64,000 nt of DNA from a virus. Below are positions 12,807-35,228 of this stretch, piece by piece (the first letter of the stretch is position 1; the number at the start of each line of letters is the position of its first letter). The stretch is from positions 26,029-90,028 of IMG/VR virus record IMGVR_UViG_3300044655_002353, one strand, 5' to 3'. The position numbers were made by a program, and so were the translations under genes. A model generated the notes under the pieces. That model was not told the origin of the DNA. It saw only the letters and a program-made list of their open reading frames with translations, and did no database searches.

Positions 12807-13437
12807 TACTTTCAAACAATACTTACTAAAAGAAGAACGCGAATCGACTTTCTATACTAAGAAGTCTCAAATCAATGCTTGGATGAAAGCTCATGGCATT
12901 GGTCAGGGGAATTATGAAATTCATAAAGATATGAGTATCACATGTCATTGGAGTTTATCAATTTCTGGAAGTGATTTGGTCTGGTACAAAGGGAAGCAGT
13001 GTGTATTGCCAATCAACTTTAGAGAATGTACTAAAGATGTTCATGTATTAGCAAATGATATGATTGACTTGAAAGGGGTACCAAAATTTGTGGGTGGACA
13101 GTTCAATGTAAAGGGTAAGAACATTACTTCAGTTGAATACTTACCTGAAGAAGCTGAAGATATCTATCTGCATAATACAGGTATTATCAATTTCAAAGGT
13201 ATTGAAAAAGTGGTCAAAAAAGTCTATTCAATTTCAATACCTGAAGAAACTAAAGGGTTACTAAGCTTTGTTAAGATACAAAACCTAATGAAGGTTTCGC
13301 CATTATCAACTGCTTCTGACGAACTAAAGGAAGCATGCAAAATTGTAACTAAATATTGTGAAGCAAATCGACATGATGCTATTGCTTGTCAACGTAAACT
13401 TATTGAAAGCGACTTGGACGAATATGCAGAGTTTTAA
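12799..13437 (+). CDS. CQRELIE family member A1
   Basis: GTG start with GGAGG upstream; TFKQYLLKEE; ends AIACQRKLIESDLDEYAEF. Confidence 0.85.
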   Translation: MSNTFKQYLLKEERESTFYTKKSQINAWMKAHGIGQGNYEIHKDMSITCHWSLSISGSDLVWYKGKQCVLPINFRECTKDVHVLANDMIDLKGVPKFVGGQFNVKGKNITSVEYLPEEAEDIYLHNTGIINFKGIEKVVKKVYSISIPEETKGLLSFVKIQNLMKVSPLSTASDELKEACKIVTKYCEANRHDAIACQRKLIESDLDEYAEF

Positions 13438-14095
13438 AGAATACTTACAAGAAGTAGAAACTGATTCAAATATTCAACTTGGGATGTTTGTTGAAACTAA
13501 AGTCAAAATTGAATATTCTCCATATTCTTTAGAATCTGAGCTTAAAAATTTGATAATAAAAGTAGCAAAAAAGAAAGGTTATGATATTTCAAGTTATCTC
13601 AGTACTACTTATGGAATTGATTTGAAGTTTAAGATAACAAAACAAATCCAGTGTCAAGCAGAAACTATTCAAAAGTTACGTGATACTATTAGTTCAACTG
13701 TGAATGAGTTTTTTACGACTAAGATTTCACCTGAATTACAAGTAAAATTTTCTACAGCTGAGTTATCTTGTTTTGGATTTCCAAATTTTAAGCTAAGTAT
13801 AAATGATGGTAACATTTCATATTGGTGTGAAGAAGGTCAATCGATTTCTAACTTAGATAAAGTTATTCTAAAGTGTGATGAGTTCAGACTTTATAAAGCA
13901 AATATGATAAAAGGGGGAATACTTAGTTTGCTCAAACTAAAAATGCCAGTCAATATTATTGGCGCAGGTCCTTTTGGAAGTAATAGCCCACGATGGTATT
14001 CAATTGTCAATCCTTATTTGCAAGGCAATAGAAATGCTATTGCTTGCCAACGAGAACTCATTGAAAAAGACTTAGACGAATATGCGGAGTTTTAA
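13424..14095 (+). CDS. CQRELIE family member A2
   Basis: Start reassigned to MQSFKEYLQE inside the junction repeat; conserved C-terminus. Confidence 0.85.
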   Translation: MQSFKEYLQEVETDSNIQLGMFVETKVKIEYSPYSLESELKNLIIKVAKKKGYDISSYLSTTYGIDLKFKITKQIQCQAETIQKLRDTISSTVNEFFTTKISPELQVKFSTAELSCFGFPNFKLSINDGNISYWCEEGQSISNLDKVILKCDEFRLYKANMIKGGILSLLKLKMPVNIIGAGPFGSNSPRWYSIVNPYLQGNRNAIACQRELIEKDLDEYAEF

Positions 14096-14768
14096 AGAAT
14101 ACTTAGCAGAAGGCAATGATCATTGGGTAGAACCAATTCGCCCATTGCTTCTTCAAATAAAAGTACGTGGAGATGATTACATTTCTCCAAAGTATAATAG
14201 AGAACAGCTTTTTCAGCGAAACAATATAATTATTCGTGAATTATCTGAACTCTGTGAAAAAGCAAATCTTCCTAAAGTAAAAGAAGTCTATCATTTTGGA
14301 GTTGATAGAGTAACGTTTCATTTAGTTCTTGAACCCCATACTCATTATACTAAACCGCAACTTGATACTATAGCAACAAAGTTTATCAAGTTAGCAGATA
14401 AGTATGAAATTTATAAGAATGACTTTGAACCAGTATCTTCTGAAATGCCAGTAGTTATCTTAGAAGATAACTTTGATAAAACGACTACAGTTGAAGTCAA
14501 TCACGTTATCATTGAAGAAAGTGTCAAATCCTTACAAGATATACATAAAGTCATATTATCTGCTAAACAGATTTCTATGGGTGACTCTTCTAATATAACA
14601 CAAAATGTATTAGGATTACTAAAGATAAAGAATGCTATAACATTATATGCTTCAGCTAAAGTTCAATGGTTTAACATTGTAAAGGAATATTTCGATACAG
14701 GAAAAGACTTTATAGCTTGCCAACGAAAACTAATTGAACTTGACTTGGACGATTATGCAGAGCTTTAA
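14082..14768 (+). CDS. CQRELIE family member A3
   Basis: MRSFKEYLAE ... FIACQRKLIELDLDDYAEL. Confidence 0.85.
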   Translation: MRSFKEYLAEGNDHWVEPIRPLLLQIKVRGDDYISPKYNREQLFQRNNIIIRELSELCEKANLPKVKEVYHFGVDRVTFHLVLEPHTHYTKPQLDTIATKFIKLADKYEIYKNDFEPVSSEMPVVILEDNFDKTTTVEVNHVIIEESVKSLQDIHKVILSAKQISMGDSSNITQNVLGLLKIKNAITLYASAKVQWFNIVKEYFDTGKDFIACQRKLIELDLDDYAEL

Positions 14769-15423
14769 GCAATACTTATCTGAAGCTTCTAATCCGGATG
14801 ATAAACAAATCCGTGAAATGATTGGAAAGTATAAGAGTGGAGAACTTGGCAGATGTAGGTTTCCGAATAAATTTCCACGACATGCAGTTAAGAATGGAAA
14901 AATCTATTTGAAGAAACCTTTAATTATTGAGCATTGCATGTTTGATGACAATGATGAATTACTATTTCCAATTGCAGAAGCTCTTCGATTAGTAATATGG
15001 AATGTTCCTAAGACGTTCAAGAACTTTCCTGAAATAGTTGGCGAAGGTGGTATTGAATTTTCTACAGGTAACCAAATACAATCTCTTGATGGATTTCCAT
15101 CAGATATTAGTAATAGACTTGATACATCAAGAATTAGAAACTTTGATTTTACAAATTTCAATAAGTATGTCAAAAGACTTGATGGATGGTTAATAACTAG
15201 TGCTTTATATGAAGGGCCCTTATTATCATTACTAAAAATTAGAGACTTGAAGCATGTAGGATTTATTGACCACCATTCTGGTAAATCTCAAGATGAAGTA
15301 AAAATTAAAGTGAATTTAAGAAATGCTTGTAATATTATCAACAAATATTTACCACTTGGAAATTTTATTGAATGCCAACGAGAACTTATTGAAAACGACC
15401 TGGACGAATACGCAGAACTATGA
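14755..15423 (+). CDS. CQRELIE family member A4 (LRR-like)
   Basis: Start reassigned to MQSFKQYLSE; TFKNFPE/SLDGFP repeats; conserved C-terminus. Confidence 0.85.
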   Translation: MQSFKQYLSEASNPDDKQIREMIGKYKSGELGRCRFPNKFPRHAVKNGKIYLKKPLIIEHCMFDDNDELLFPIAEALRLVIWNVPKTFKNFPEIVGEGGIEFSTGNQIQSLDGFPSDISNRLDTSRIRNFDFTNFNKYVKRLDGWLITSALYEGPLLSLLKIRDLKHVGFIDHHSGKSQDEVKIKVNLRNACNIINKYLPLGNFIECQRELIENDLDEYAEL

Positions 15424-16097
15424 AAATCTCTGAACTACTAACTGAAGAAACTGCCGAAGATAAAGCTGTACGACTCGAAATAAATGCGATTCGTAAAGGT
15501 AAGTATGCATCACATCCGATGCCAGTCAGCTTTGGGAAATTTAGCGTTGTTAATAGTATGGTATCAATTGATGGACGTTGGAACTTAAAGAATACTCTTA
15601 TTCCTAAAGATGGACCTGATGCCGGTAAGCTAACTTTCAAAATGATAAAGTGTGGTCAGATTGAATTGGGTGCCAATAGATTATCATCATTTGAAGGATT
15701 TCCACCAGATGTATCATTCACCGGCGATAAGATGTATGGAAGAACTGCTATCGTGACTACCTGTGCGCATCCACTTCTAACAAAGTTAGATGGCATTTCA
15801 AAACGAATTGATGGAAACCTTGGATTAGGCTTGTGTCATAATCTTGATTGGTCTAATGCTCACAAACATTTTGAATACATAGATGGCACTTTAACAATTT
15901 CTAATCAATGGAAAGGTGGTGTCTTATGGGCATTAAAGATTCCAAAACTTCAAGCTTTGTTTTTTGGCCAATGTTCAAGCGAACACCGAGATGTTCAAGT
16001 AATTATTAGCAAATACTTAAGGTCAGAGTCAAAAGATATTGTAGCTTGTCAACGTGAACTTATCGAAAAGGATTTAGACGAATATGCAGAGTTTTAA
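15420..16097 (+). CDS. CQRELIE family member A5 (LRR-like)
   Basis: MKISELLTEE ... IVACQRELIEKDLDEYAEF. Confidence 0.85.
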   Translation: MKISELLTEETAEDKAVRLEINAIRKGKYASHPMPVSFGKFSVVNSMVSIDGRWNLKNTLIPKDGPDAGKLTFKMIKCGQIELGANRLSSFEGFPPDVSFTGDKMYGRTAIVTTCAHPLLTKLDGISKRIDGNLGLGLCHNLDWSNAHKHFEYIDGTLTISNQWKGGVLWALKIPKLQALFFGQCSSEHRDVQVIISKYLRSESKDIVACQRELIEKDLDEYAEF

Positions 16098-16788
16098 AGA
16101 ATTCTTATTGAAAGAAGAAATTATTAATCATGAACTTCCCACTAACGCGTACATTGATATTAGCACTGGTATCTTTACGTCTGAGGTTGAGCAATGGATT
16201 ACTGACGGTGATGGTGACGATAATCCACATATTACTTTCGAAAAATGGATAACATCTCATCTTCAAGATTACTTTGGACATAATGAAGTTGAAGCTTTTT
16301 TCGGAGCTGATGAAATGCTTATTACATATGAACTAGATGAGACTAACTTACATGCTAATCATGTTAGAGAAATACGTAAAAAATGCACTGAAATAGTTGA
16401 TGAGCTTTTAGGAACCGATATATTTCACCGTGATGAAGACAATACATACATATCTTTTAGAGAACAACTTGGTCCAAATGTTTATACTGATTGGCCATAT
16501 ATCGAATTTTACTTAGATCATTCTCCTTCAATATCTCTAAAAGATATTCATAAGAAAATGCCTCATTGCAAAAAAATTATTTTCTATAATGCGATTAATA
16601 AAATAAATTCTAATGTATTAGGATTATTAAAGTTAAAAGAATTGAAGCATATTACAATTTGGCCACGTTCTCAAAAGATACCTCCTTGGTATGAAATTGT
16701 AATGAAACATTTCGACGCCGATAAAAACTTCATCGCGTGTCAACGTGAACTAATTGAAAAAGATTTAGACGAGTATGCGGAGTTATAA
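16084..16788 (+). CDS. CQRELIE family member A6
   Basis: MQSFKEFLLKEE ... FIACQRELIEKDLDEYAEL. Confidence 0.85.
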   Translation: MQSFKEFLLKEEIINHELPTNAYIDISTGIFTSEVEQWITDGDGDDNPHITFEKWITSHLQDYFGHNEVEAFFGADEMLITYELDETNLHANHVREIRKKCTEIVDELLGTDIFHRDEDNTYISFREQLGPNVYTDWPYIEFYLDHSPSISLKDIHKKMPHCKKIIFYNAINKINSNVLGLLKLKELKHITIWPRSQKIPPWYEIVMKHFDADKNFIACQRELIEKDLDEYAEL

Positions 16789-17437
16789 CATGTCAAATGG
16801 CGCACAAAGAATTACCTATTATGTTTATTGTAAGGTTCCCGGTAACCTACCAAATTCTTCATTACCCTCGACTTCAGAAACAATAGAAAATGCAATCGGC
16901 AATCTGTTACATAATCAATTTGAGAATAGAATAGTTTCTATAGAATACCGAGATAAAGAATTTGCTTTTAAAGTACCAATCACAAATGCAACTGAAGGTA
17001 GTACAGAAGGTATTAGTGCTTTTGACAAAAAACTGCTTGGTCTGCTAAATAACTATTACAAAGATATTATTACTAAACCCTTGAAGTTAAAAGAACAGTT
17101 TGTAAGTATCTTTAATATCATACCCCCATTTAAAATTGAGCATCCTAAGGTGGCTCTTAACTTTACAGTAAATGGTGGTGCTGAAGTATCTTTACATGAT
17201 ATTCATAAAGCTATAAATCCTAAAGATTTGGCTTTATACGTAAGTGCCGCGGTTAAAGTCACTGGGCAAGTATTAGGATTGTTGAAAATGACAAATCTTC
17301 AAAATCTTGAATGGGCAATGAGTAATGAACCAGAATGGTTTAAGATTGTTCATAGACATTTTGAAAATAATAACGATATTATTGAATGCCAACGCGAACT
17401 TATTATAAAGGATTTAGACGAGTATGCAGAGCTTTAA
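16775..17437 (+). CDS. CQRELIE family member A7 (N-terminal tag degenerate)
   Basis: MRSYNMSNG ... IIECQRELIIKDLDEYAEL. Confidence 0.8.
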   Translation: MRSYNMSNGAQRITYYVYCKVPGNLPNSSLPSTSETIENAIGNLLHNQFENRIVSIEYRDKEFAFKVPITNATEGSTEGISAFDKKLLGLLNNYYKDIITKPLKLKEQFVSIFNIIPPFKIEHPKVALNFTVNGGAEVSLHDIHKAINPKDLALYVSAAVKVTGQVLGLLKMTNLQNLEWAMSNEPEWFKIVHRHFENNNDIIECQRELIIKDLDEYAEL

Positions 17438-18092
17438 ACAATACTTACTAAAAGAAAATGAATCTCCATTTGTTTTCCCATGGCTTGTCTTAGAACTAGA
17501 GAACAAAGAAACTTTTGGCGAAGCTATGGGAAATCATAGAAATCGCGATGCTTTTGATAATGAAGTTGAAAAGTTTGTCAACGATCTTAAAAGTCATTTA
17601 GGTATGAAAGATATTGATTGGGGTTTCAATAGAGATGACAATCTACAAGTTGAAATTAAACTAAGCAATCGACATTATGTACAAGATGAGTTAGAAGAAA
17701 TAGCGACTGAAGCAGCGAATTTTTCTAATCGTGAGCTAAGCGGTGGATTGACACTAGATGAAGTCAATCCAAGTGTATGGTTCTTTGGTCCGGTCAATCC
17801 TAATACTATCATACATTATCCAGTCATAGTATTTGATTTGAAACGTAATAAAAGTATCTCACTTAGCAACTTTGACAAACATTTCCCTGATACTCAAGTG
17901 TTCAGGTTTGAACATATAGTAGGAGAAGTCACTAACGTGTTGAGTATGTTGAAGATAAAATCATTACATTCAGTATTAGGAAAAAATGAACACTGGATTG
18001 AAATACTAAATAAATATGCAAAATCCCATGACACTATTGCTGCCCAACGCGAACTAATTGAAAACGACCTGGACGAATATGCAGAATTTTAA
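17424..18092 (+). CDS. CQRELIE family member A8
   Basis: MQSFKQYLLKE ... TIAAQRELIENDLDEYAEF. Confidence 0.85.
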   Translation: MQSFKQYLLKENESPFVFPWLVLELENKETFGEAMGNHRNRDAFDNEVEKFVNDLKSHLGMKDIDWGFNRDDNLQVEIKLSNRHYVQDELEEIATEAANFSNRELSGGLTLDEVNPSVWFFGPVNPNTIIHYPVIVFDLKRNKSISLSNFDKHFPDTQVFRFEHIVGEVTNVLSMLKIKSLHSVLGKNEHWIEILNKYAKSHDTIAAQRELIENDLDEYAEF

Positions 18093-18873
18093 GAACTTTA
18101 TTGCTGAAGCTAAGCAAACGAACTTGGCACCTTGGCACCCAACAACTCCAGAAGCAACTAAGGAAGTACTTCATGAGTTTTATCTTGAACATTATGGAAA
18201 TAAATATTTGCCAACTACATTCGTATTCCTAAAGAATGGAAGTATTTCTGTTCGAGGAGAGCAATTCTTCGCTATTCGTGAAATCGGACCTGTTGATAAT
18301 GGTGAAGTTGGACTACTTGTAAAGTATAACAATATCAATTGCCCAGGTAGAGTTAGTATAAAAGATTTCAATACTAGGAAATTGACTACATTAGAATATG
18401 GACCTAATAAAGTCGGAATGAGTTTAAACATACAACTTTCACAAATTACTTCATTCAAAGGATTTGCATGTGAAGTTAAAGAGGCATTGATATTGACCGA
18501 TTGTCTAAAGTTGAAAGAATGGGGTCAAGGATGTCAAATTACATGTCATAGATTAGTGCTTGACTACGAATTTGACTATGAATTGTTTAGAACTATCGGA
18601 CAACATTTCAAAATAGTAAATAACATAACATTGTCTAATGCCGCAGCAAAAACTTTAGTTGGAAAAGGATTACTTAGTATATTCAAAATTAAAAAGCCTA
18701 CACGAAATATGTTTGGTATTCAACTTTACTTTTCTGATAAAACTAAAGTAAACGAAGAATTAGTTGAAGCAACTAGAATAGTCAATACATACTTAGCGTC
18801 AAACAACCCTGATATTATTGGATGCCAACGTAAACTAATAGAAAACGACTTGGACGAATATGCAGAGTTTTAA
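18079..18873 (+). CDS. CQRELIE family member A9 (LRR-like)
   Basis: Start reassigned to MQNFKNFIAE; NLAPWH motif; conserved C-terminus. Confidence 0.85.
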   Translation: MQNFKNFIAEAKQTNLAPWHPTTPEATKEVLHEFYLEHYGNKYLPTTFVFLKNGSISVRGEQFFAIREIGPVDNGEVGLLVKYNNINCPGRVSIKDFNTRKLTTLEYGPNKVGMSLNIQLSQITSFKGFACEVKEALILTDCLKLKEWGQGCQITCHRLVLDYEFDYELFRTIGQHFKIVNNITLSNAAAKTLVGKGLLSIFKIKKPTRNMFGIQLYFSDKTKVNEELVEATRIVNTYLASNNPDIIGCQRKLIENDLDEYAEF

Positions 18874-19504
18874 AGAATACTTATTAGAAAGTGCTGGACA
18901 CTTACCAATTGTCAATGTACAAATTGACTTTGCTGGTCCTATTTCTGTCGGCAAACGTAAAACTCTAGTATTCCTAATTACAAAATTTATCAAGGAAGAA
19001 TACAACCTTTCTAATACAATAGAGTTCACTTCTATTTTTGATTCAATAATTGTCAAAATACACGATGTTCCGCAACATCTTTTTGAAACTGTTGATTTCT
19101 TAGGTGATATACATGACATAGTTACTGACCACTTTGAACCTGTTGACGCTTACAGTCATATTGAATGTCATTGGCCACCTGCTTTCAAGATGGTCATTCA
19201 AAATCATTTGACTACTATCTATACTAACCAAGAGTCTGTTAAAGGTATCGAAAAACTAATAGAAGGTTCAAGTGCATTTCAATTGGACATTCGTTTTGAA
19301 GCACCGGCTAAATCAATTGGAATACTATCGCTTCTAAAAGTAAAAGGTTTTGATAGCATCATGATAAATGGTCCAGATGAATTACTTAGCGACCTTAAAA
19401 TTGTTAATGACATTTTACATAAATACTATAATGGGAGTAAAGATACTATTGGCTTTCAACGAGAACTAATTGAACGTGACTTAGACGAATATGCAGAATT
19501 TTAA
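18860..19504 (+). CDS. CQRELIE family member A10
   Basis: MQSFKEYLLE ... TIGFQRELIERDLDEYAEF. Confidence 0.85.
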   Translation: MQSFKEYLLESAGHLPIVNVQIDFAGPISVGKRKTLVFLITKFIKEEYNLSNTIEFTSIFDSIIVKIHDVPQHLFETVDFLGDIHDIVTDHFEPVDAYSHIECHWPPAFKMVIQNHLTTIYTNQESVKGIEKLIEGSSAFQLDIRFEAPAKSIGILSLLKVKGFDSIMINGPDELLSDLKIVNDILHKYYNGSKDTIGFQRELIERDLDEYAEF

Positions 19505-20228
19505 ATCTTATCTTGCTGAAAAGTTAGCAACCAATTTTGCCCCTTGGCATATTACTGACCCTGAGAAAGTTCAGTACTATATGAAAAATTATGCTAATAT
19601 GTCTGGATGGAAAGTGAATAAAGACGGAACTGTATCTGTCACTAAGTCGGACTATTCGCCTAATGGGGTATATGGCGACATTGGCGGATACGGTCATGGT
19701 GAAACTGCACTCATGGTAAAGTACAGAACTGCTAAGAAGTTTGAAATAAATGTTGCAGATGGTTCAAATTTCAAATCACTTTGGGGAATTCCTGATGCAT
19801 GCGACCAATTGAATATAAGTGTTCCGTCATTAGAAACATTAGAACATTGTACTCCAGTTATCAAAGATTCGTTATATCTCTATACTCCTAACTTGAAAAG
19901 TTTTGATTGTGGAAAAGTTTCGATTGCACAAGAACTAAAAATTGGAAGTATTGGGAAAGCACCGCTTAGAGATTTACACAAACATTTTGCAGTTCCACAA
20001 ATTCGTTTCTATAACACCGCTCTACACCTAATCAAACAAAAACCGCTGTTATCATTGTTGAAATGTAATGCTAAATTGACATGGGGTTCAATTATGACAA
20101 TTAATGGAACGTCTCTAACTGAAGTAGTAGAAGTGTTAAAAATACTAAATAAGTATAATAGTTCTAGTATTATACAATGTCAGCGAGAACTTATCGAAAA
20201 AGACCTAGACGAATATGCGGAGTTTTAA
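19491..20228 (+). CDS. CQRELIE family member A11 (LRR-like)
   Basis: MQNFKSYLAE, NFAPWH ... IIQCQRELIEKDLDEYAEF. Confidence 0.85.
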   Translation: MQNFKSYLAEKLATNFAPWHITDPEKVQYYMKNYANMSGWKVNKDGTVSVTKSDYSPNGVYGDIGGYGHGETALMVKYRTAKKFEINVADGSNFKSLWGIPDACDQLNISVPSLETLEHCTPVIKDSLYLYTPNLKSFDCGKVSIAQELKIGSIGKAPLRDLHKHFAVPQIRFYNTALHLIKQKPLLSLLKCNAKLTWGSIMTINGTSLTEVVEVLKILNKYNSSSIIQCQRELIEKDLDEYAEF

Positions 20229-20887
20229 TGAAAATAAAAGAACTATTTGAGAATGAATTACCGATGACGACACAAGGCAGAGTTAGTAGTGGAACATATG
20301 TTGTAGACCTTTCTCTTGAAAATCTTCCATCAGAAAATCTTAGACAAAGGATAGTCAAAAACATCAAGTTTGTCTATCCTCAAGCTGAAGTTCATATTGA
20401 TAAAGAAGCTATTTTGACTAAAATACCAAAGATTGTGGCATCTTATATTCATGAACTACCGGATATACATGATGACATTATTCAAACAGTTGAAGAAACA
20501 GTTAATGATTTTAATAATAAAGATGAAGATCCTATTGCTCATGGTCAATCAGAATTAGTTTTCGATGGTGTTCCATCATTCAAAGTTATTACTGAAAGAG
20601 TAACTATCAATTGTCAAGAAAATTCCATTGGTCTTACCGGGTTAGACAAGCTCATAGGACCAGAAGTTCAAGAACTATTCATTAACGATATTCAAAAGCT
20701 GAAAGGTCATATCTTGTCATTATGCAAAATACCTATGAGCGTTGATATGTATCTCTATTCAAGATCGTCTGGAGATTTACATCATAAGATTGACGAAATG
20801 CTGATAAAGCATCGTCCTACACAGGATGTCATTGGTTTTCAACGTGAACTTATCGAAAAGGATTTAGACGAATATGCAGAGTTTTAA
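20228..20887 (+). CDS. CQRELIE family member A12
   Basis: Start reassigned to MKIKELFE (TAATG overlap); conserved C-terminus. Confidence 0.85.
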   Translation: MKIKELFENELPMTTQGRVSSGTYVVDLSLENLPSENLRQRIVKNIKFVYPQAEVHIDKEAILTKIPKIVASYIHELPDIHDDIIQTVEETVNDFNNKDEDPIAHGQSELVFDGVPSFKVITERVTINCQENSIGLTGLDKLIGPEVQELFINDIQKLKGHILSLCKIPMSVDMYLYSRSSGDLHHKIDEMLIKHRPTQDVIGFQRELIEKDLDEYAEF

Positions 20888-21623: not shown

Positions 21624-21829
21624 GAGTTTAACAAGTTAGTCAAAAAGTCTATCTTAACAGCAAGTTCGAGTTTCTCTGCTTCCATTTTTCCTATTGCATT
21701 ATTGATATTGTCGAGACCGTTTACTCTGGCGTAAAAGTTATAGTTTTCTTTAAAAAACCCTAATGATTTTGCGACGAATTCATAATCTTGACTTAGTTTT
21801 TCTAAATATTCTGCTGAAAAGTTATTCAT
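21620..21829 (-). CDS. Small hypothetical protein
   Basis: 69-aa ORF with AGAGGGA RBS, downstream of 21836-22147. Confidence 0.5.
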   Translation of the reverse strand: MNNFSAEYLEKLSQDYEFVAKSLGFFKENYNFYARVNGLDNINNAIGKMEAEKLELAVKIDFLTNLLNS

Positions 21830-21835
21830 GTGTTT

Positions 21836-22147: not shown

Positions 22148-22271
22148 ATACTCTATTTATATGTAGGGTTACATACATATTTCGAGAATTAGAAGGCTCT
22201 AATGATAAATACTCTCATATAGAAATATAATTCTTTATATATATAATTCAATTTCAAAGGAGAGCTTACTT

Positions 22272-22865: not shown

Positions 22866-22880
22866 GTTTCATACTCATAG

Positions 22881-27355: not shown

Positions 27356-28044
27356 AAATTGGAGAGTTGTTAAATGAAGCAGTAAAGAAGCATCCGGAAG
27401 AATTTGCTATCATGGCTAAGATACATAAATGGCGAACCAAAATTGCTTCTGAAAAAGCTGCAACATATTCTTCATGGTATCCACCATTCGGAAAATATAA
27501 AATAGTTCCATATAAAGGTGGAGGTTATGGTGTAGAGCATTTGAGCGAAAATCTAAAACTTTATGAATGGATGTTTGAGAACGGAGAGCTTCCATTCAAG
27601 TTTATATCATGTATTTCACTTGATGTTTATGGTGTTAATGCAATGACAACGTTTAAAAACTTTCCAGATAAAGTTCTTAATAATAGTAATGGCACAATGC
27701 TGAACATATTCGGAGTTAATAGCACAATGAAAGGGCCTAATATTCATTCATTAGAAGGTGTGCCTCGACATATTAATGGTTCCGCAGATTTTTCTCATTT
27801 TCCGAAACTATCTTTTGCAAATGTTCATAAACATATCGATTATGTTGAAGGTGTTAAATTTCCATATCCGTATAAAGGTCCTATTCTTGGATTTCTAAAG
27901 ATAAATGGATTGAGTTCAGTTACAGACCATGGTGATAAGTGGCAACAGATACTAAATAAACATTTAGCAAGTTCTAAACGAGATGCCATTGCATGTCAAC
28001 GCGAATTGATTGAAAAAGATTTAGACGAGTACGCGGAGTTTTAA
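27352..28044 (+). CDS. CQRELIE family member B4 (LRR-like)
   Basis: MKIGELLNE; TFKNFP, SLEGVP. Confidence 0.85.
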   Translation: MKIGELLNEAVKKHPEEFAIMAKIHKWRTKIASEKAATYSSWYPPFGKYKIVPYKGGGYGVEHLSENLKLYEWMFENGELPFKFISCISLDVYGVNAMTTFKNFPDKVLNNSNGTMLNIFGVNSTMKGPNIHSLEGVPRHINGSADFSHFPKLSFANVHKHIDYVEGVKFPYPYKGPILGFLKINGLSSVTDHGDKWQQILNKHLASSKRDAIACQRELIEKDLDEYAEF

Positions 28045-28709
28045 TGAAAATACAAGAACTATTTGAACAAACATCTAGTAATCAACAAATGTCTAAGGAT
28101 GAAGTACTTGCTATTATTGATGAATGGCGAAGTTGGCAAACTTTTCCGCATGATTACTATGACAAATTTGTAGTCGCTAAAGATGGAACAGTTTCATGCA
28201 ATATGCCAAAATTTCAAATTACGGAAAGAATGCTAACGCCAGAAGGAACTCTTCCATTCAAGATTACCCGAGCTAAATGTATTCACGTTTATACGTCTGC
28301 ACTTTCTTCATTCAAAAACTTTCCAGAGTATATTGAAACTCCTAAAAGCTCAAAGATTGATGCTCTAAAATTAGAGGGAGTAAATTTCCCTAAGCTTACT
28401 TCTTTAGAAAGTATTCCAAAGTATTCCAAAGGAGTATTGAATTTATGGGAAGCTCAAAATTTATCATTCGCTAATGTTCATAACCATATCTTAGAAGCTG
28501 ATAAGATTTATATTTCTGGGAATAAGCCAAGTCCGATATTAGGATTTTTGAAAATCAAAAACCTTAAAACTGTTTGGATATCAAGTGAAAGTATTGACGA
28601 TTTCGAAAGAGCAATTGATATTCTCAATGAATTCTTACCTAATGGCAACACCATTGCGTGCCAACGAAAACTAATTGAAAATGACTTAGACGAGTATGCG
28701 GAGTTTTAA
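28044..28709 (+). CDS. CQRELIE family member B5 (LRR-like)
   Basis: MKIQELFE; close paralog of 25294. Confidence 0.85.
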   Translation: MKIQELFEQTSSNQQMSKDEVLAIIDEWRSWQTFPHDYYDKFVVAKDGTVSCNMPKFQITERMLTPEGTLPFKITRAKCIHVYTSALSSFKNFPEYIETPKSSKIDALKLEGVNFPKLTSLESIPKYSKGVLNLWEAQNLSFANVHNHILEADKIYISGNKPSPILGFLKIKNLKTVWISSESIDDFERAIDILNEFLPNGNTIACQRKLIENDLDEYAEF

Positions 28710-29350
28710 TGAAAATAAAAGAATTGTTTGAACAGGAAGAAGAACAAATACCATATAAAGTAGCAGAGCAATTGAGAATGCTTACTCAAGGTACTATCAA
28801 TCTAAATAAAATGGGCATATTATATGCTAATTCTAAATTAGACTTATCGCAATCTGATACGGCATTTGGAGCTTTCGCTGATAAAGTTGAAAATGGATAT
28901 GAACTAAAATATAAACTTGACGTAGTATTAGGTGATTTTGATATTGAAGATAGACAAATAGTTTCATTCAAAAACTTTCCAAACTCGGTTCATGGTGCTG
29001 TAAATTGTTATAAAAATAATATTACTTCACTTGAAGGTGCTCCTTATAATATAAGTGGTTCTTTAGATTTGATTGATAATCCTATCACTTCATTCAAAGA
29101 TATTCATAAACATATTCAGAGTTGCAGTAAGATTTATGTTCCTGTATCAGTTCAATCAAACTTATTAGGTGTATTGAAGATGAAAAATATTCCTTTACTT
29201 TCTACTGCTTCAACTGATAGATGGAAAGAAGGTTATAATACTTTATTAAAAGCTATATCTATCATAAATAGTTATCAAACAGCCAATGATTGGATTGCAT
29301 GTCAACGAAAACTAATTGAAAACGACCTGGACGAGTACGCAGAATTATGA
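28709..29350 (+). CDS. CQRELIE family member B6 (LRR-like)
   Basis: MKIKELFE; NNITSLEGAP, NPITSFK. Confidence 0.85.
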   Translation: MKIKELFEQEEEQIPYKVAEQLRMLTQGTINLNKMGILYANSKLDLSQSDTAFGAFADKVENGYELKYKLDVVLGDFDIEDRQIVSFKNFPNSVHGAVNCYKNNITSLEGAPYNISGSLDLIDNPITSFKDIHKHIQSCSKIYVPVSVQSNLLGVLKMKNIPLLSTASTDRWKEGYNTLLKAISIINSYQTANDWIACQRKLIENDLDEYAEL

Positions 29351-30003
29351 AAATATCAGAATTATTAAATGAAGCAACAAGTAATAGAACCGATACTTTT
29401 GAAATAAAGTTATCGTTTGAAACACATTTTGCACCAAAAGTAATTGCTATTCGAGATGCTTTGATTAAAGCTAATCTTACTGGCGTAAAAGTTAAACTTG
29501 TCGATAAACCATCATCAAGTAACCAAGTACGAATAACTTTGAACGGAAAACTTCCATTCAACAAAACTAATATTGAACATCAATTAGAAAGAGTTCGCGA
29601 AGTAGTCGAAAGCTTTAACAAAATCGATAAAAGCCCTTATAACGAAGGTTCATCATTTCCTATTGTCTTTATTGACAATATGCCAAATAGCCCAATTGAA
29701 TGGCCGGTTATCTATTTGAACTCAAATAGTAATACAGCTCTTTCATTAGCAGGTGTTGATAAACTTATTAAAGCAGATGAATTATTTAGAATTGAATATG
29801 CTAATATGATTAGCGATAGTGTTGTAGGGTTATTGAAAATCAAAGGCAAACTCATTCTAAATAATGCAGATTGGGGTAATAAGTTTAAAACTGTTGAATG
29901 GGTTAAAATTATTACTAGTTATAGAAAATCAGAAAATCAAGATATAGTTGCATGTCAACGTGAAATGATTGAACAAGACTTAGACGAATACGCGGAATTT
30001 TAA
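29347..30003 (+). CDS. CQRELIE family member B7
   Basis: MKISELLNE ... IVACQREMIEQDLDEYAEF. Confidence 0.85.
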   Translation: MKISELLNEATSNRTDTFEIKLSFETHFAPKVIAIRDALIKANLTGVKVKLVDKPSSSNQVRITLNGKLPFNKTNIEHQLERVREVVESFNKIDKSPYNEGSSFPIVFIDNMPNSPIEWPVIYLNSNSNTALSLAGVDKLIKADELFRIEYANMISDSVVGLLKIKGKLILNNADWGNKFKTVEWVKIITSYRKSENQDIVACQREMIEQDLDEYAEF

Positions 30004-30638
30004 TGAAAATAAAAGAACTATTTGAAACCTCAGTTAGAAAAGATTATTTTATAGACTTATGGCTGTCGTATAATGCTCTAACTACTACTTTAACAAAACT
30101 CAATGAAAATCCTAAAAAGATAACTGATGCTATTGACAAAAAAACCGGATTGAGTTCAATTATTCAAGTTGGTAAAGGTACATTTGATATTAGCCTTGAA
30201 GTTCCAGAACATCAGGTGAATGATTTTGCGAATTACATAGATGATGTCAATGCTGTTCTTAAAGCGTTTTTTGATATCACTGAAATTCGTGAAGATTCAG
30301 GGTCGCATATAGTTCATTTAACATTTGACAAACAGGTTCCTTCATTACCAATACCAATTGAGTTTCCGAATATCTTTATTCAGAACCTTAATAAAACTTC
30401 ATTATCTGGTATTCATAAAATAATAAAAGATTTTAGTTATTTAGAAATCAATAATTCTGAGAATATTACAGGTGGTGTTTTGGGTTTGATAAAGTTAGCA
30501 AAACATGGAGTAATAAAAATCAATACTCCAAATCCTGAATGGGCTAACATTGTTTTAAAATATTTAAACTCGGGTGATGTCATTGCATGTCAACGAAAAC
30601 TAATTGAAAAGGATTTAGACGAGTACGCAGAACTATGA
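30003..30638 (+). CDS. CQRELIE family member B8
   Basis: MKIKELFE; close paralog of 33211. Confidence 0.85.
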   Translation: MKIKELFETSVRKDYFIDLWLSYNALTTTLTKLNENPKKITDAIDKKTGLSSIIQVGKGTFDISLEVPEHQVNDFANYIDDVNAVLKAFFDITEIREDSGSHIVHLTFDKQVPSLPIPIEFPNIFIQNLNKTSLSGIHKIIKDFSYLEINNSENITGGVLGLIKLAKHGVIKINTPNPEWANIVLKYLNSGDVIACQRKLIEKDLDEYAEL

Positions 30639-31561
30639 AAATATCAGAATTGTTAAATGAAGCATCTAAAGGTGCAGACTATTCAGCGGTCATTGACCAA
30701 TTAGAACAAACTCCAGAGTTTAAGGACTTCTCGAAGTACTTTGACTTGAACTCCACGAAAATACAAAGAAAGAATGGTTCTTTGCAAATAGTGACTAAAG
30801 ATACCTATCTAAAAGAACCACGAGAATACTTTGTCAATTATGCAGGTGATATCAAAGTCAAAAATTCTTACGCCTCTATTTGGGGTAAAGCGGGTTATGG
30901 TGCGGGTCCAGACGGTTCATTACAAATGTATCTGAACTGTTTAGATACAATACATACCCATTTTGTGAATTGGTTTGCAAAACGTCTAAAGAATGCTAAA
31001 GATGATGTGCGTAATCTTAGTCTTACTACGCTAAAAGGCAGAATTTATCCAAATAAGATTTCAAACTTCAATTGTTCTTACAATAATCTTACAACCTTAG
31101 AAGGAGCACCTGAACTTAATGCGGCGGGGGATTTCTCAGTAGGTGGGGATTTCTATTGTAACAACAATGAACTGACTTCGCCTTTAGTTGGTGGTCCTGA
31201 ACAATGTAGATTGTTTAATGCTGCTAATAATAAGCTAACATCTTTTGAAGGATTTCCAAAGCATGCTCAGTTTATTCAAGCGTATGGTAATCCAATCACT
31301 TCATTCTCTGACGTTCATAAGCATATTCCGAGGTGTCAAGGATTTACTTTACCGCCAGTCAAAACTGGGGTCTTAGCATTTTTCAAAGTAAAAGATTGTA
31401 CTTCAATTGCATTTACTATAAATGGTAGAAAAACAGAAGATGGAGAATTTGGTTTAGTTGCTCAAATTGTTTCTAAGCATTTATTCTCTAGTGAACGAAG
31501 TGCTATCAAATGTCAACGTGAACTAATTGAAAACGACTTGGATGATTATGCAGAGTTTTAG
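30635..31561 (+). CDS. CQRELIE family member B9 (long, LRR-like)
   Basis: MKISELLNE; FNCSYNNLTTLEGAP, CNNNELTS, ANNKLTSFEGFP, YGNPITSF. Confidence 0.85.
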   Translation: MKISELLNEASKGADYSAVIDQLEQTPEFKDFSKYFDLNSTKIQRKNGSLQIVTKDTYLKEPREYFVNYAGDIKVKNSYASIWGKAGYGAGPDGSLQMYLNCLDTIHTHFVNWFAKRLKNAKDDVRNLSLTTLKGRIYPNKISNFNCSYNNLTTLEGAPELNAAGDFSVGGDFYCNNNELTSPLVGGPEQCRLFNAANNKLTSFEGFPKHAQFIQAYGNPITSFSDVHKHIPRCQGFTLPPVKTGVLAFFKVKDCTSIAFTINGRKTEDGEFGLVAQIVSKHLFSSERSAIKCQRELIENDLDDYAEF

Positions 31562-32273
31562 ACAATACTTATTAAAAGAACAGGCTAACAACGATTTCGA
31601 CTTTTGGCCGGAAGAAGATATTATCGACTGGATTACTAGAAATGGTCATCGAGTTCTAAAGAAGTATAACATTGAAGATTTAGACCCTGGCAACTTTGAA
31701 AATGCAAAGTATGATTATGGTATTGTAAATGCTACGGCTGTGTTATTATCTGGTGATGAAGAATGTTTGCCACGTATTAATGGTTCAACTCATCTTCGTT
31801 ATTTGCCATGTCAGTTTGGACAAATAGAAAGGAACTTCTTTATAGCAAATTGTAGTTTAGGTTCTTTGAAAGGATGTCCTAAAATCGTGGGTGGTCGTTT
31901 TAGCATTAGCAACAATCCAGAAATCACATCACTTGATTATTTTCCTGAAAGAGCTTCTTCATATATACTTCGTGGAACTGGTATTACTTCTTTGAGTGGC
32001 ATTCACAAAGTCATCAAAGAAATAAGACCTAATAGACAAGGTGATGGTGAAATTGTCGTTCCGCATACTTTGACTAATTCTATATTAGGCTTGCTAAAGA
32101 TACCAGGATTGAGAACTATTTCATATCCAGCAACTGAAAGAGCTAAATACTCTAATGAACTTCGCCAAGCAATTGGAATAGTCTATAACCATTTACAAAC
32201 AGACGAAAAAAATGCTATTGCCTGCCAACGAGAACTAATTGAAAATAATCTAGACGATTACGCGGAGTTTTAA
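31548..32273 (+). CDS. CQRELIE family member B10 (LRR-like)
   Basis: Start reassigned to MQSFRQYLLKE; LGSLKGCP, ITSLDYFP. Confidence 0.85.
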   Translation: MQSFRQYLLKEQANNDFDFWPEEDIIDWITRNGHRVLKKYNIEDLDPGNFENAKYDYGIVNATAVLLSGDEECLPRINGSTHLRYLPCQFGQIERNFFIANCSLGSLKGCPKIVGGRFSISNNPEITSLDYFPERASSYILRGTGITSLSGIHKVIKEIRPNRQGDGEIVVPHTLTNSILGLLKIPGLRTISYPATERAKYSNELRQAIGIVYNHLQTDEKNAIACQRELIENNLDDYAEF

Positions 32274-33211
32274 TGAAACTAAATGAACTATTTCCATTAC
32301 TAAAAGAAGCCGGTGTTTCGATACCTGCTGTTAAAGATTTGCCGCCTATTGACCCGGTTGATTTAGCTGATACTCTAAATAAAGTCAAACAATCAAACGA
32401 ATATAAAGAAATACTTTCAAAAACATTTGATATCAGTTCTGCTATAAAACTAAAAAACGGAACTTTAACATTCAAGTTGAAAAATGGAACTATGGATTAT
32501 TCGATTTATTCTAATGGACAGATAAGAGCTCAGGCAGCACATGCTGATAGAGCCACTAAGATGAATTCGCCTATTCCCGTTCCTAATCTATATGTTCGTT
32601 ATATCAACTGTTTAAAAAAGCTGAAAGACATAGCTGAAAAAAAATTAGCTAAGAAAGAAGAAAATAAAACAATTATATTATCTGGAGAAATGGGCCCTGA
32701 CTTAACTCAAATTGAATTCCCAAAAGATACAATTTATCTCAATGTTCTTAAATCTTCAATTCGTTCCCTAAAAGGTTGTCCGCCAACAATTGAACATTTG
32801 ATGATAAGTGACAATGAAAATCTAATATCTTTAGAAGGTTGTCCATCTAAATTAACAAATTTAGCTATATGGGATAATAAAAACTTATCATCATTAGAAC
32901 ATATTGCTTCTGATATTGATGGTAATCTACAAATTTATCGTAATGCAAAAATTACTTCTTTTGACAATTTAGATAAGTTAGTAAAAAGAATAGGCATCAT
33001 GTTACAATTTGACCCAACTATTAAAAGTGGTGTTCTTTCTATTTTGAAAATTAAAGGATTAGAACAAGGTGTTCGACAAACAAAACCACCACAAGAAGTT
33101 GATCTTATCTTAGGTAAAATTCTAACTAAACATATATTTGCAGGGCGCAACAGGATTGCGTGCCAACGTGATCTAATTGAAAACGACCTAGACGAGTACG
33201 CGGAGTTTTAA
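32273..33211 (+). CDS. CQRELIE family member B11 (long, LRR-like)
   Basis: MKLNELFPLLKE; IRSLKGCP, LISLEGCP, LSSLEHI; N-domain related to 30635. Confidence 0.85.
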   Translation: MKLNELFPLLKEAGVSIPAVKDLPPIDPVDLADTLNKVKQSNEYKEILSKTFDISSAIKLKNGTLTFKLKNGTMDYSIYSNGQIRAQAAHADRATKMNSPIPVPNLYVRYINCLKKLKDIAEKKLAKKEENKTIILSGEMGPDLTQIEFPKDTIYLNVLKSSIRSLKGCPPTIEHLMISDNENLISLEGCPSKLTNLAIWDNKNLSSLEHIASDIDGNLQIYRNAKITSFDNLDKLVKRIGIMLQFDPTIKSGVLSILKIKGLEQGVRQTKPPQEVDLILGKILTKHIFAGRNRIACQRDLIENDLDEYAEF

Positions 33212-33879
33212 TGAAAGTAAAAGAACTATTTGAACACGAAGCTATTCCAAAGTTAAAACAAAATCATATGATAGAGCTTACATTAGAATTTAGCGGATTG
33301 ACTGACTTATGTAAGAAGATGAAAGCAAATTTGCAACAGTTCAAAAAACTTATCAATGAAAAGACTGGAACTGATAGTATTATATTAGTTAGTACTATTT
33401 CATTTTCTATTAAATTATTGATTGAAGATAAAAATGTTGATGCTTTTGATAATTATCGTGAAAATGTTTTAGACGTATTGAATGAATTTGCAGGTGATTC
33501 TTCTAACTATCGAGAAAATCATGAAGACCACCATGTTAATCTATTCTTTTCACATGAGGTTCCTAAACTTTCAATTCCAATTTCATATGATACTGTTTAT
33601 GTAAATGTAGAAAATAAATCTTCATTATCCGGAATTGATAAAATTATATCTTCTTTTAGAAACTTATATATTCGTAATTGTGAAAACGTTACCGGAAAGG
33701 CATTAGGCATTATTAGGTTAGCTAAGAAAGGTAAAGCAATCAACTTATCAACATCAGATTATCATGAATTGCATTGGATGTATGTTATCAATAAGCATTT
33801 GAATCCTGAACGTCAAAATGTTGTAGCTTGTCAACGAGAACTAATTGAACGTGATTTAGACGAATATGCAGAATTTTAA
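33211..33879 (+). CDS. CQRELIE family member B12
   Basis: MKVKELFE ... VVACQRELIERDLDEYAEF. Confidence 0.85.
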   Translation: MKVKELFEHEAIPKLKQNHMIELTLEFSGLTDLCKKMKANLQQFKKLINEKTGTDSIILVSTISFSIKLLIEDKNVDAFDNYRENVLDVLNEFAGDSSNYRENHEDHHVNLFFSHEVPKLSIPISYDTVYVNVENKSSLSGIDKIISSFRNLYIRNCENVTGKALGIIRLAKKGKAINLSTSDYHELHWMYVINKHLNPERQNVVACQRELIERDLDEYAEF

Positions 33880-34540
33880 ACAATACTTGCAAGAAGGTGA
33901 AACTCAGAATTCAGTTTATCTTGAATGTTGTTATTACTTTCCAGGAAATCCTATAACAGACATAACTTCAGCAAAAGTTCGTGGTATAGTCTCACCAGTG
34001 TTGAAAGGCTTTAAGTTTTCACTTCAAGATGTAAGCACTGAAGGTTTTGTTGTAGTTATTATAGACCCTGATAGTAATTGGTTGAAATCTGAAAAAGCTC
34101 AGTTTGATTTGCATGGTAAGATTATGGAAGCAGTTTGCTCTGAGTATAAAATGAACTTTGCGCATGTCATTAATCATCATAAGTTTTCGGCTAATTGTAA
34201 TATAGGATTGAATAGATTACTTCCATTTCAAGTAGTTTGTCATTTATTGTCTATCAATGTTCAAGTTGATACAGTTTTTACAAATATCAAAAAGCTAGTA
34301 AAATGTGATGCGATTCACATTTATCAAATGGAGTATTTTAATGGAGGGTTATTAGGATTATTACAAATACCTCATCCAACTCAAGTTTGGTTTTCTTCTA
34401 ATAGTATTAGATTAGCAAAATACGATAAATTAAATGAGGCCATTCGAATTGTCAGAACACATTTAGATGGTGATAGAAATGTTGTAGCTTGTCAACGAGA
34501 ACTAATTGAAAAGGATTTAGATGAATATGCAGAGCTTTAA
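33866..34540 (+). CDS. CQRELIE family member B13
   Basis: MQNFKQYLQE ... VVACQRELIEKDLDEYAEL. Confidence 0.85.
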   Translation: MQNFKQYLQEGETQNSVYLECCYYFPGNPITDITSAKVRGIVSPVLKGFKFSLQDVSTEGFVVVIIDPDSNWLKSEKAQFDLHGKIMEAVCSEYKMNFAHVINHHKFSANCNIGLNRLLPFQVVCHLLSINVQVDTVFTNIKKLVKCDAIHIYQMEYFNGGLLGLLQIPHPTQVWFSSNSIRLAKYDKLNEAIRIVRTHLDGDRNVVACQRELIEKDLDEYAEL

Positions 34541-35228
34541 ACAATACTTACAAGAAGACACGGCTTCAAATAGCGAATACGTTCAACGTATTCGAGACCT
34601 ATTAAATGATTGGGCAAGTCAAGAACTTATACCGAATGACCCAAAGAAAAACTCTTTGCACGGTTTCAAAATATCTGCATCTGGGATAGTTGATTGTCAG
34701 TTAGGAACTCTTATAATTTATGATGAAATGTTAGATGCTAATGGTGAATTCCCATTCAAAATCCGAAATGCAAAATATATGATTTTGGAGCGTTTAGAAA
34801 AATTAAAATCATTCAAAAACTTTCCTGAAAAATTAGTATGTAAATCAGATTATAGGGATGTTTTTATAACATATCATCTTTTTAAGTATCGTAAAATTAC
34901 ATCTTTTGAGAATTTTCCAAAATATTGTCCTAATGGAGAAATACAACTAGAGGCATTTGTAAATGCTTCTTTTTCAAATATTCATAAACATATTTTGGAT
35001 GCAGAAACAATAAGAATAAATCCTAATTATGTTGGACCTATTTTATCATTTTTAAAGATTCCAACTTTAACAGATGTATATGCATTTACGGGGGATGTAA
35101 ATGACGAAAGTGAATCATGTAAAGAAGCTCTTAGTATTCTAAATAAACATTTAAATGGTAATAGAGACTTTATTGCATGTCAACGAGAACTAATTGAAAA
35201 GGATTTAGATGAATATGCTGAATTATAA
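34527..35228 (+). CDS. CQRELIE family member B14 (LRR-like)
   Basis: Start reassigned to MQSFKQYLQE; SFKNFPE, TSFENFP. Confidence 0.85.
   Translation: MQSFKQYLQEDTASNSEYVQRIRDLLNDWASQELIPNDPKKNSLHGFKISASGIVDCQLGTLIIYDEMLDANGEFPFKIRNAKYMILERLEKLKSFKNFPEKLVCKSDYRDVFITYHLFKYRKITSFENFPKYCPNGEIQLEAFVNASFSNIHKHILDAETIRINPNYVGPILSFLKIPTLTDVYAFTGDVNDESESCKEALSILNKHLNGNRDFIACQRELIEKDLDEYAEL

Follow-up and report, generated by a model that had tools for sequence, protein, structure and literature searches.

Overlapping coding joints in a 27-gene paralogous array of a freshwater jumbo phage

Introduction

The internal proteins (Ips) of T-even phages have only an N-terminal leader in common, which targets them for packaging inside the capsid (PMC12373910, PMC3012670), and they are injected with the DNA, Ip1-3 each blocking a different GmrSD restriction enzyme (PMC12373910). 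In the T4-type phages RB49 and phi1, single non-essential genes lie between conserved linkers of ~100 bp, known as PeSLs, to which the insertions, deletions and replacements that distinguish close relatives can be mapped, and mini-circles were detected by inverse PCR (PMC2839356, Arbiol et al.). The authors propose homologous recombination, report no dedicated recombinase, compare the elements explicitly with integrons and draw attention to similar elements that Repoila et al. 1994 reported at T-even Ip loci (PMC2839356). Herein we describe a 64,000-nucleotide stretch of viral DNA (the window), the right-hand 64 kb of the 90,028-bp IMG/VR record IMGVR_UViG_3300044655_002353 (positions 26,029-90,028), which carries a tandem array of 27 paralogous genes joined by overlapping, protein-coding linkers.

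An initial annotation of the window, made from the letters alone, had read these linkers as a dual-coding repeat, homogenised at DNA level, that serves as a recombination handle for whole gene cassettes. The explanation that we consider probable combines joints shaped by coding constraint, a few exchanged tails, recombination of whole cassettes at the joints, and capsid-targeted proteins that form an expanded counterpart of the T-even Ips.

Results

A two-block array of paralogous genes

The record is ~25% complete according to CheckV, which puts the genome at roughly 360 kb, and its source is a ~360-kb freshwater jumbo phage carrying a T4-type large terminase. A six-frame motif search of the whole 90-kb contig for open reading frames (ORFs) ending in Q[RK]x[LM]IxxxxD[DE]YAE[FL] directly before the stop identified 27 paralogous ORFs, all on the + strand and all inside the window, which encode proteins of 211-312 amino acids (aa) and together occupy ~20 kb. 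They are arranged head to tail without intergenic space in two blocks, with 13 genes at 12799-21623 and 14 genes at 25294-35228. The second block (~10 kb) separates a small-terminase-like (terS-like) ORF (24821-25294) from the large terminase gene terL (35274-36833), unlike in the T4 record, where terS and terL adjoin and overlap. The 25 junctions internal to the blocks are of three types, namely a 14-nt overlap (13 junctions), TAATG (7) and ATGA (5), and a 26th, of TAATG type, lies where the TAA of the terS-like ORF overlaps the ATG of the first gene of block 2 (g14). With in-frame starts, the 25 internal junctions and their three types were reproduced in exactly the numbers given by the initial annotation.

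Coding constraint at the gene joints

At each joint, the end of the ~90-aa C-terminal module of one protein (...ACQRELIExDLDEYAE[F/L]) meets the 8-11-aa leader of the next, and the repeat is this joint of a conserved end and a conserved leader rather than a separate DNA element. Each of the repeat families D1-D5 (100-136 nt, 60-88% identity) has a junction at its centre. The leader type tracks the junction geometry, in that overlaps are followed by MQ[S/N]FK or MRSF and TAATG or ATGA junctions by MK[I/L/V]xEL[F/L]. The MQ[S/N]FK leader is the +1 reading of TAT GC[A/G] GA[G/A] [T/C]T[T/A] TAA, the last four codons and stop of the upstream gene, and among database homologs such leaders are found with ...YAK[L/F] tails as well, which is what a +1 reading would give. 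The leader types differ by an indel of ~10 nt; since a TAATG joint minus 10 nt would give MQSFKELFE, the leaders have a common core, KE[L/Y][F/L]..E.

The dual coding of the joint proposed in the initial annotation is borne out by codon statistics, as synonymous choice in the last five codons follows the start signals of the next gene. In gene bodies, Tyr is encoded by TAT (81%) or TAC (19%), and GCG makes up 8% of Ala and GAG 13% of Glu codons. At the joints, Tyr is TAT in 13/13 overlap tails, providing the ATG, and TAC in 11 of the 14 non-overlap tails (p = 2.5e-6 against bodies), by which an out-of-frame ATG is removed. All seven TAATG tails use GCG for Ala (p = 2.6e-8) and six of the seven use GAG for Glu (p = 3.6e-5), a combination that puts GGAG 5 nt before the ATG, whereas GCG occurs in only 2 of the 20 other tails (Fisher p = 4e-5). 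Since codon choice tracks the start signals in this way, the three junction types can be regarded as three selected haplotypes of the last five codons, and a large share of the synonymous identity close to the stop is accounted for by dual coding. When a tail changes synonymously, the next leader acquires Q/R and S/N changes, which are tolerated. The junction types had also been described as fixed; this holds for the overlap geometry, which is constant, but not for the 14-mer itself, as ATGCAGAGTTTTAA is found at 4 of the 13 overlaps and the other nine differ at 1-2 positions. A consistent Shine-Dalgarno sequence is absent at ATGA and overlap junctions, where translation is presumably coupled to termination of the upstream gene. 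No recurrent hairpin was found at the junctions, none of 24 inverted repeats recurring there. The array is a natural experiment on how strongly overlapping coding constraints shape synonymous sites.

The array genes are as follows, where r numbers denote genes of a related metagenome contig, SXGU01063245.1 (63.7 kb; loci L017 and L022; hereafter REL).

12799..13437, + strand: g01, first of block 1; GTG start after GGAGGA, leader-like SNTFKQYLLKE
13424..14095, + strand: g02; 14-nt overlap start, MQSFKEYLQE
14082..14768, + strand: g03; 14-nt overlap, MRSFKEYLAE; ortholog r04, 83%
14755..15423, + strand: g04; 14-nt overlap; REL ortholog absent, a whole-cassette indel
15420..16097, + strand: g05; ATGA start, MKISELLTEE; 50-nt exact tail repeat with g12
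16084..16788, + strand: g06; 14-nt overlap, MQSFKEFLLKEE
16775..17437, + strand: g07; 14-nt overlap geometry; leader motif absent, likewise in ortholog r07
17424..18092, + strand: g08; 14-nt overlap; ortholog r08, 84%
18079..18873, + strand: g09; 14-nt overlap, MQNFKNFIAEA; ortholog r09 (76%) has an MKISELF leader and TAATG
18860..19504, + strand: g10; 14-nt overlap
19491..20228, + strand: g11; 14-nt overlap
20228..20887, + strand: g12; TAATG start, MKIKELFENE
20874..21623, + strand: g13, last of block 1; 14-nt overlap; ortholog r14, 87%
25294..25971, + strand: g14, first of block 2; MKIKELFE
25971..26642, + strand: g15; TAATG; 61-nt exact tail repeat with g21; ortholog r16 (72%) has MQNFKQYL and a 14-nt overlap
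26639..27355, + strand: g16; ATGA
27352..28044, + strand: g17; ATGA
28044..28709, + strand: g18; TAATG; REL ortholog absent
28709..29350, + strand: g19; TAATG
29347..30003, + strand: g20; ATGA
30003..30638, + strand: g21; TAATG; REL ortholog absent
30635..31561, + strand: g22, 308 aa; ATGA; leucine-rich-repeat (LRR)-like repeats of ~21-23 aa; weak match to phrog_21719
31548..32273, + strand: g23; 14-nt overlap; upstream stop is TAG
32273..33211, + strand: g24, 312 aa; TAATG; LRR-like; 30% match to ORF88 of Ralstonia jumbo phage RsoM2USA
33211..33879, + strand: g25; TAATG
33866..34540, + strand: g26; 14-nt overlap; REL ortholog absent
34527..35228, + strand: g27, last of block 2; 14-nt overlap; REL ortholog absent

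Sources of similarity between the joints

The exact repeats reported in the initial annotation were recovered, 26587-26647 being identical to 30583-30643 over 61 nt (g15/g21) and 16049-16098 to 20839-20888 over 50 nt (g05/g12). Their flanking bodies had been called unrelated; with the last 20 residues removed this stands for g05/g12, which gave no significant match (E 0.056), but not for g15/g21, which are distant paralogs (25% identity over 210 aa, E 2e-8). Across the 351 pairs of tails, the last 60 nt are on average 78% identical and the longest exact run has a median of 13 nt, with runs of at least 20 nt in 57 pairs and of at least 30 nt in eight. Runs of at least 36 nt join five pairs, against 0.29 expected in a permutation test in which codons were shuffled within column and amino acid (0 of 2000 permutations reached 5), and the two longest of them are the 61- and 50-nt repeats. 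These pairs, ~5 of 351, look like a few recent tail exchanges or conversions.

Such runs between genes with bodies 25% identical or undetectably similar could mean that the joint is actively homogenised at DNA level, by gene conversion or concerted evolution, and kept as a dedicated integron-like recombination handle. That explanation would also fit the tail outside the overlap zone, where the same-codon fraction is 0.628 against 0.52 expected, and the tails of REL, which are more uniform than those of the window (mean identity over the last 60 nt 0.826 vs 0.766). As a general property of the array, however, homogenisation is largely refuted, with five tests against it. First, at amino-acid-identical degenerate positions, the same-codon fraction reaches 0.598 over the final 17 codons, compared with 0.553 predicted from family codon usage (in gene bodies, 0.487 vs 0.459 expected). 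Second, two tails differ on average by 5.7 synonymous codons out of 17, with a variance not above that of the permutations (p = 0.185). Third, identity within the window (0.766) is below that of non-orthologous tails compared between the window and REL (0.782), orthologous tails reaching 0.827. Fourth, in the 20 orthologous pairs the same-codon fraction is equal in tails (0.682) and bodies (0.673). Fifth, 28 distinct tails from 12 other loci, some of them with different tail peptides, show these site-specific preferences as well (CAA for Gln, GAC for Asp at -6, ATT, CTA/TTA). With last-five-codon choices that track start signals, and with neither integrase or resolvase matches in the 90-kb contig nor recurrent hairpins at its junctions, we regard an actively homogenised handle as very unlikely. 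Under concerted evolution, paralogous copies should resemble one another more closely inside one genome than across genomes, a pattern that the window does not show and that REL shows modestly (0.826).

Almost all REL tails read QRELIEND, while the window mixes IEKD, IEND and RKL forms; the uniformity may reflect some concerted evolution in that lineage only.

The similarity of the joints would instead have three sources: strong amino-acid constraint on the tail; codon bias together with site-specific codon preferences common to distant relatives; and selection on synonymous sites for the downstream start, in the form of an ATG, a GGAG or the avoidance of a false ATG. Synonymous identity lies near the prediction from codon bias, contrary to the initial annotation, while endpoints of whole-cassette differences between related phages do map to the repeat, in its favour.

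Turnover of whole cassettes between related phages

Whether REARRANGEMENTS map to the joint was examined in two comparisons, the window against REL and, among three IMG/VR contigs with a TerL 87% identical to that of the window, L015 against L014 and L016. REL has the same two-block layout and flanks as the window; its first block holds 13 genes and its second 11, and one further member stands alone. Its flanking genes are close to those of the window (aa identity: tube 99.5%, second tube-like 96%, gp4-like 94%, terS-like 79%, TerL 87%), and a 394-aa ORF upstream of block 1 is 81% identical to REL ORF 15278-16471. Reciprocal BLASTP gave 20 collinear ortholog pairs with 47-87% identity. Beyond these, REL lacks orthologs of g04, g18, g21, g26 and g27, the window lacks orthologs of r13 and r17, and g01-g02 are not orthologous to r02-r03; at least 8 cassettes are found in one genome only, plus 2 that are replaced.

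At every one of these differences, collinear blastn segments stop or overlap in the tails. The g03 and g04 tails both align to the r04 tail, window 20822-20905 aligns to REL 24425-24508 as well as to 25164-25247, and homology breaks off precisely with the g25/r25 stop, to return 52 nt ahead of the g27 stop. In four of six examined events, left-like informative sites give way to right-like ones within the interval from -42 to +19 relative to the stop (the other two were too noisy), and all six preserve frame and overlap geometry. In the second comparison, L014 and L016 are 99.8% identical, and L016 and L015 are 96.5% identical from the last tail onward into TerL; L015 carries an extra g22-like cassette (~804 nt) before TerL that is absent from the other two, and L016 469-555 aligns to both tails that flank it. 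When cassette order is compared between related genomes, as the initial annotation had suggested, the arrays are collinear, with endpoints of whole-cassette presence or absence in the repeat. The proposed recombination handle is partly supported to this extent. Two independent comparisons thus document cassette turnover at the joints, for which recombination is the inferred mechanism.

Neighbouring cassettes also differ in age. From one ortholog cassette to another, the synonymous same-codon fraction varies between 0.50 and 0.82 (0.50-0.64 in ten, 0.70-0.82 in ten; chi2 152, df 19, p = 9e-23), as would be expected if single cassettes were replaced from a wider pool; non-family flanking genes are heterogeneous too (p = 1e-5). 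In addition, leader and junction type differ together in two ortholog pairs, g09/r09 and g15/r16.

Since every cassette is bounded by ~60-120 nt that are 60-90% similar and in the same phase, general recombination could move whole genes with frames intact. Homologous or short-homology recombination at the joints would delete, duplicate or replace whole genes, either unequally within one genome or reciprocally between co-infecting relatives, and a crossover at a joint would keep both reading frames and translational coupling. Such a process would account for collinear arrays with whole-cassette differences and for unequal synonymous ages.

Several results weigh against this explanation. Where the members of a family have similar ends, gaining or losing a whole gene by any process would leave endpoints in the repeat, so they locate the differences but do not give the mechanism. 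The step in identity is 0.118 at 13 junction points and 0.081 at 455 mid-body points, not a significant enrichment (Mann-Whitney p = 0.095), and nucleotide identity also shifts inside bodies. With a median of 13 nt, the exact runs are short, so the repeat offers homologous recombination a poor substrate. The cassettes found only in the window match their nearest copies at 36-48% and are old paralogs, not fresh duplicates. Finally, Logan contigs from three DNA runs and one RNA run contained no rearranged molecule over 15229-35228; in the listed pieces they are identical to the window and break at repeats of at least 31 nt. Eight listed contig joints were considered as rearrangements and rejected, having sides of 21-39 nt, or in one case 66 nt that was attributed to repeated junction sequence.

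Several of these points would suit an ordinary, vertically inherited tandem family, in which independent losses by any deletion process, with selection for intact neighbours, leave the repeat without a mechanistic role. The arrays are strictly collinear, and block 2 (25294-35228) is stable, present at 0.99 of sampled words in 18 lake and freshwater DNA runs from 17 studies (2020-2025). A breakpoint inside bodies is seen in protein P0021 (325 aa, on a 1,523-bp JGI contig), an in-frame hybrid whose residues 1-173 match g10 (95%) and 161-325 match g11 81-245 (99%), its join lying away from any junction; it is a singleton that could be a genuine deletion variant or a chimera made by misassembly, and we give it no weight on either side. 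Losses alone, however, cannot produce adjacent cassettes that differ in synonymous divergence, and this alternative also sits poorly with cassettes unique to each genome, with the two pairs that differ in leader and junction type and with the frame and overlap geometry kept in all six events. We therefore consider it unlikely.

The runs point to a persistent freshwater phage population. Block 2 was also present in two RNA-library runs (0.94 and 0.79 of sampled words), whose contigs cover parts of the array, although contigs can neither show transcription level nor exclude DNA carry-over. The initial annotation had noted no dedicated recombinase, and our family scan agrees, with no integrase, resolvase or RecA family match in the 90-kb fragment (~25% of the genome); the IntI-type family PF00589 likewise gave no match in this incomplete record, with a control positive in 14/14 genomes.

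A protein family with T4-like leaders

All 27 proteins align over the C-terminal module (S..IHK.I ... LGLLKIK ... I.NKYL...D.IACQRELIE.DLDEYAEF), upstream of which the bodies form LRR-like and alpha/beta-looking groups with little or no similarity between groups. A hydrophobic-x-Glu motif ends at residue 8-12 in 26 of the 27 genes, and several leaders (g09 MQNFKNFIAEA, g06 MQSFKEF, g03 MRSFKEYLAE) resemble the T4 N-termini translated from NC_000866 (IPIII/IPII MKTYQEFIAEA, IPI MKTFKEF). In a regular-expression scan of the 90-kb contig, the leader was found only on the family and on the 394-aa non-family ORF (11425-12609), which suggests that it is a separable module. Both g07 (16775-17437) and r07 (L022 8956-9594) are without it, as are the database look-alikes P0058 and P0149 (...YY.YC[KR]V); these leaderless cassettes may form a subfamily with a different kind of targeting, or one that does not go to the capsid.

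A profile built on the C-terminal module matched 1,591 cluster representatives at E of at most 1e-3, and 240 at E of at most 1e-10, among 1.84 billion (public-data clusters at 50% identity). In the 150 proteins listed, the module is C-terminal, and 81 match regular expressions for one of the two leaders (51 MKIKELF-like, 30 MQSFKEYL-like), many others having near variants or being truncated. Typical members matched no family in Pfam or PHROGs, and there is no Pfam model for the family; a PDB sequence search returned only fibrinogen (E 0.02), and in the Atlas the matches are unnamed viral clusters, in one of which 21% of members have LRR_4. LRR profile matches were below threshold (LRRNT 20.9 bits against a cut-off of 25.8 for an L016 member; LRR_4 E 0.24-0.7). 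Among phage records, megablast of block 2 and tblastn of g14 gave no match, while tblastn of g24 found RsoM2USA at 30%. Apart from the RsoM2USA paper, a limited literature search returned no relevant work on such a tandem paralog family in jumbo phages, from which no absence is claimed. Copy number is 27 in the window and 25 in REL, compared with 2-4 in the other loci seen.

Two relatives place the family close to the virion. RsoM2USA has three tandem members (ORFs 90, 89 and 88), and hmmsearch with the A1 profile gave E-values of 6e-17, 3e-7 and 1e-4 for ORFs 88-90 (Z = 1e6), with none of 12 neighbouring control coding sequences matching. ORF89 (28.57 kDa) was assigned by LC-MS/MS to one of 10 abundant bands of purified virions (PMC8504454), and its computed mass is 28.56 kDa. 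In IMG/VR contig 3300042346_000702, three members follow the portal (phrog_213, E 1e-94) and head-maturation protease (phrog_207, E 6e-54) genes and precede the major head protein gene (phrog_138, E 9e-94). Both this contig and RsoM2USA encode a gp21-type protease (PF03420).

On that contig (locus L007, 7960-10987), the interval from the protease to a scaffold-like acidic protein holds the three members and three small ORFs sharing a longer leader (…ELFEIAGIKDIDKA…). The latter may be a propeptide family of prohead core proteins.

From the leader, the gene context in relatives and one published virion proteome, we lean towards the family being capsid-targeted internal or ejected proteins; at a guess, the C-terminal module is a common docking or oligomerisation helix. 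A number of observations count against packaging. The band assignment in RsoM2USA is worded as "most likely correspond" in the text of the paper (PMC8504454), a PF03420 protease match is absent from the 90-kb fragment, g07 lacks the leader, T4 IPs have no conserved C-terminal module, and neither block is preceded by a TATAAATA-type late promoter.

The proteins could alternatively stay in the cell as host-takeover or anti-defence factors expressed from long operons, their N-terminal motif being a first helix or a constraint of the initiation region. The first 10 codons are indeed synonymously conserved (0.85 vs 0.67 for bodies between orthologs; 0.637 vs 0.499 between paralogs), which fits an initiation-region constraint, and the isoelectric points are mostly acidic to neutral; the missing late promoter and protease match would suit this alternative as well. 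What makes it doubtful is that the leader resembles those of T4 Ips and recurs on the non-family ORF beside the array and on no other ORF of the contig, that a homolog is reported in RsoM2USA virions (PMC8504454), and that members lie between protease and capsid gene in another phage.

If the proteins of the preferred, capsid-targeted reading are injected, the family would be a large, so far unexploited source of candidates for anti-defence or host-takeover proteins that act early, and a leader that acts as an address label, together with the common module, would make it easy to mine and test.

Genes and signals around the array

The genes that flank and separate the blocks are as follows.

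11425..12609, + strand: 394-aa ORF just upstream of block 1; MKIFELF leader, without family tail; no confident family match
22272-22865 and 23007-24275, + strand: two tail-tube-like genes between the blocks; phrog_4542, E 6e-42 and 2e-10
24280..24855, + strand: head-closure (T4 gp4-like) gene; phrog_218, E 4e-45; PF08722, E 1.6e-18
24821..25294, + strand: small-terminase-like ORF; phrog_445, E 5e-5; its TAA overlaps the g14 ATG
35274..36833, + strand: large terminase, fixed right-hand anchor of block 2; PF03237; 44% to the RsoM2USA terminase, 87% to REL

The two tail-tube-like paralogs lie side by side (197 aa and 422 aa), with a strong terminator-like hairpin between them (22877-22921), and the longer protein has a Gly/Ser-rich C-terminal extension. 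The gene at 24280-24855 was considered as a TnsA-like transposase on the basis of its Pfam endonuclease N fold; PHROGs places it as head closure, gp4-like, which removes it from the candidate recombinases for the array. The interval from the last cassette to terL contains a TATAAATA motif (35232-35239) and a perfect 13-nt inverted repeat (35236-35248/35259-35271), and the sequence directly after the last array stop is conserved in the window, REL and L014-L016. The TATAAATA motif, considered as a late promoter, occurs in 5 copies in the window against 7.7 expected, one of them before TerL. Sigma-70 promoter-like and terminator-like sites are at shuffle expectation (86 vs 82.6 and 8 vs 8.0).

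Discussion

The array would be an expanded counterpart of the T-even internal-protein loci, with bodies that are variable and partly LRR-like. Both consist of dissimilar small proteins with a short common N-terminal leader, the number and identity of the genes varies between relatives in both, and the conserved flanking sequences proposed to mediate shuffling at Ip loci can be compared with the joints of the array. The two differ in that the array has 27 genes instead of 1-3 per locus and a common ~90-aa C-terminal module, in that its linker is coding, with overlapping stop and start and no intergenic promoter or stem-loop, and in lying within the region of virion genes, where one block separates terS from terL; that its products are packaged is, moreover, deduced rather than measured.

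In large DNA viruses there are tandem multigene families whose copy number grows and shrinks through unequal recombination, among them the 'genomic accordions' and the ankyrin/PRANC families of poxviruses. Like the array, such families combine a variable, repeat-containing body with a short conserved C-terminal module, vary in copy number and lend themselves to an arms-race reading; the array differs in belonging to a bacteriophage, in its overlapping dual-coding junctions and in the lack of homology.

A bolder picture, which we offer tentatively and do not hold to be the likelier case, is that the 27 genes supply an arsenal of proteins delivered from the capsid and made on a single chassis (a T4-like leader, a hypervariable and partly LRR-like body and an invariant C-terminal docking helix), in which the coding joint doubles as a crossover site where related phages trade single effectors. 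It would be a promoterless, protein-coding counterpart of integron and PeSL exchange, and the largest known internal-protein repertoire.

With PeSLs, the array shares cassettes that each lie between conserved repeats and indel or replacement endpoints between relatives that fall in those repeats. PeSLs are intergenic and each of their cassettes has its own promoter and terminator, whereas the linker of the array is protein-coding and its cassettes are promoterless, translationally coupled in long operons and all of one protein family. With integrons, the array shares one-directional, promoterless single-gene cassettes whose content differs between relatives; unlike them, it has no IntI-type integrase match in the 90-kb fragment and no attC-like imperfect hairpins at its junctions, and its cassettes are paralogous and its junctions coding. 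The integron-like outcome by homologous recombination put forward in the initial annotation is thus matched by the pattern of cassette exchange, but it is not new in kind, having been described for T4-type phages (PMC2839356). The array is a coding-linker variant of the known T4-type cassette shuffling at IP loci and PeSLs, and it shows that phages can exchange genes as cassettes through coding linkers as well as through the intergenic regulatory cassettes of T4-type phages.

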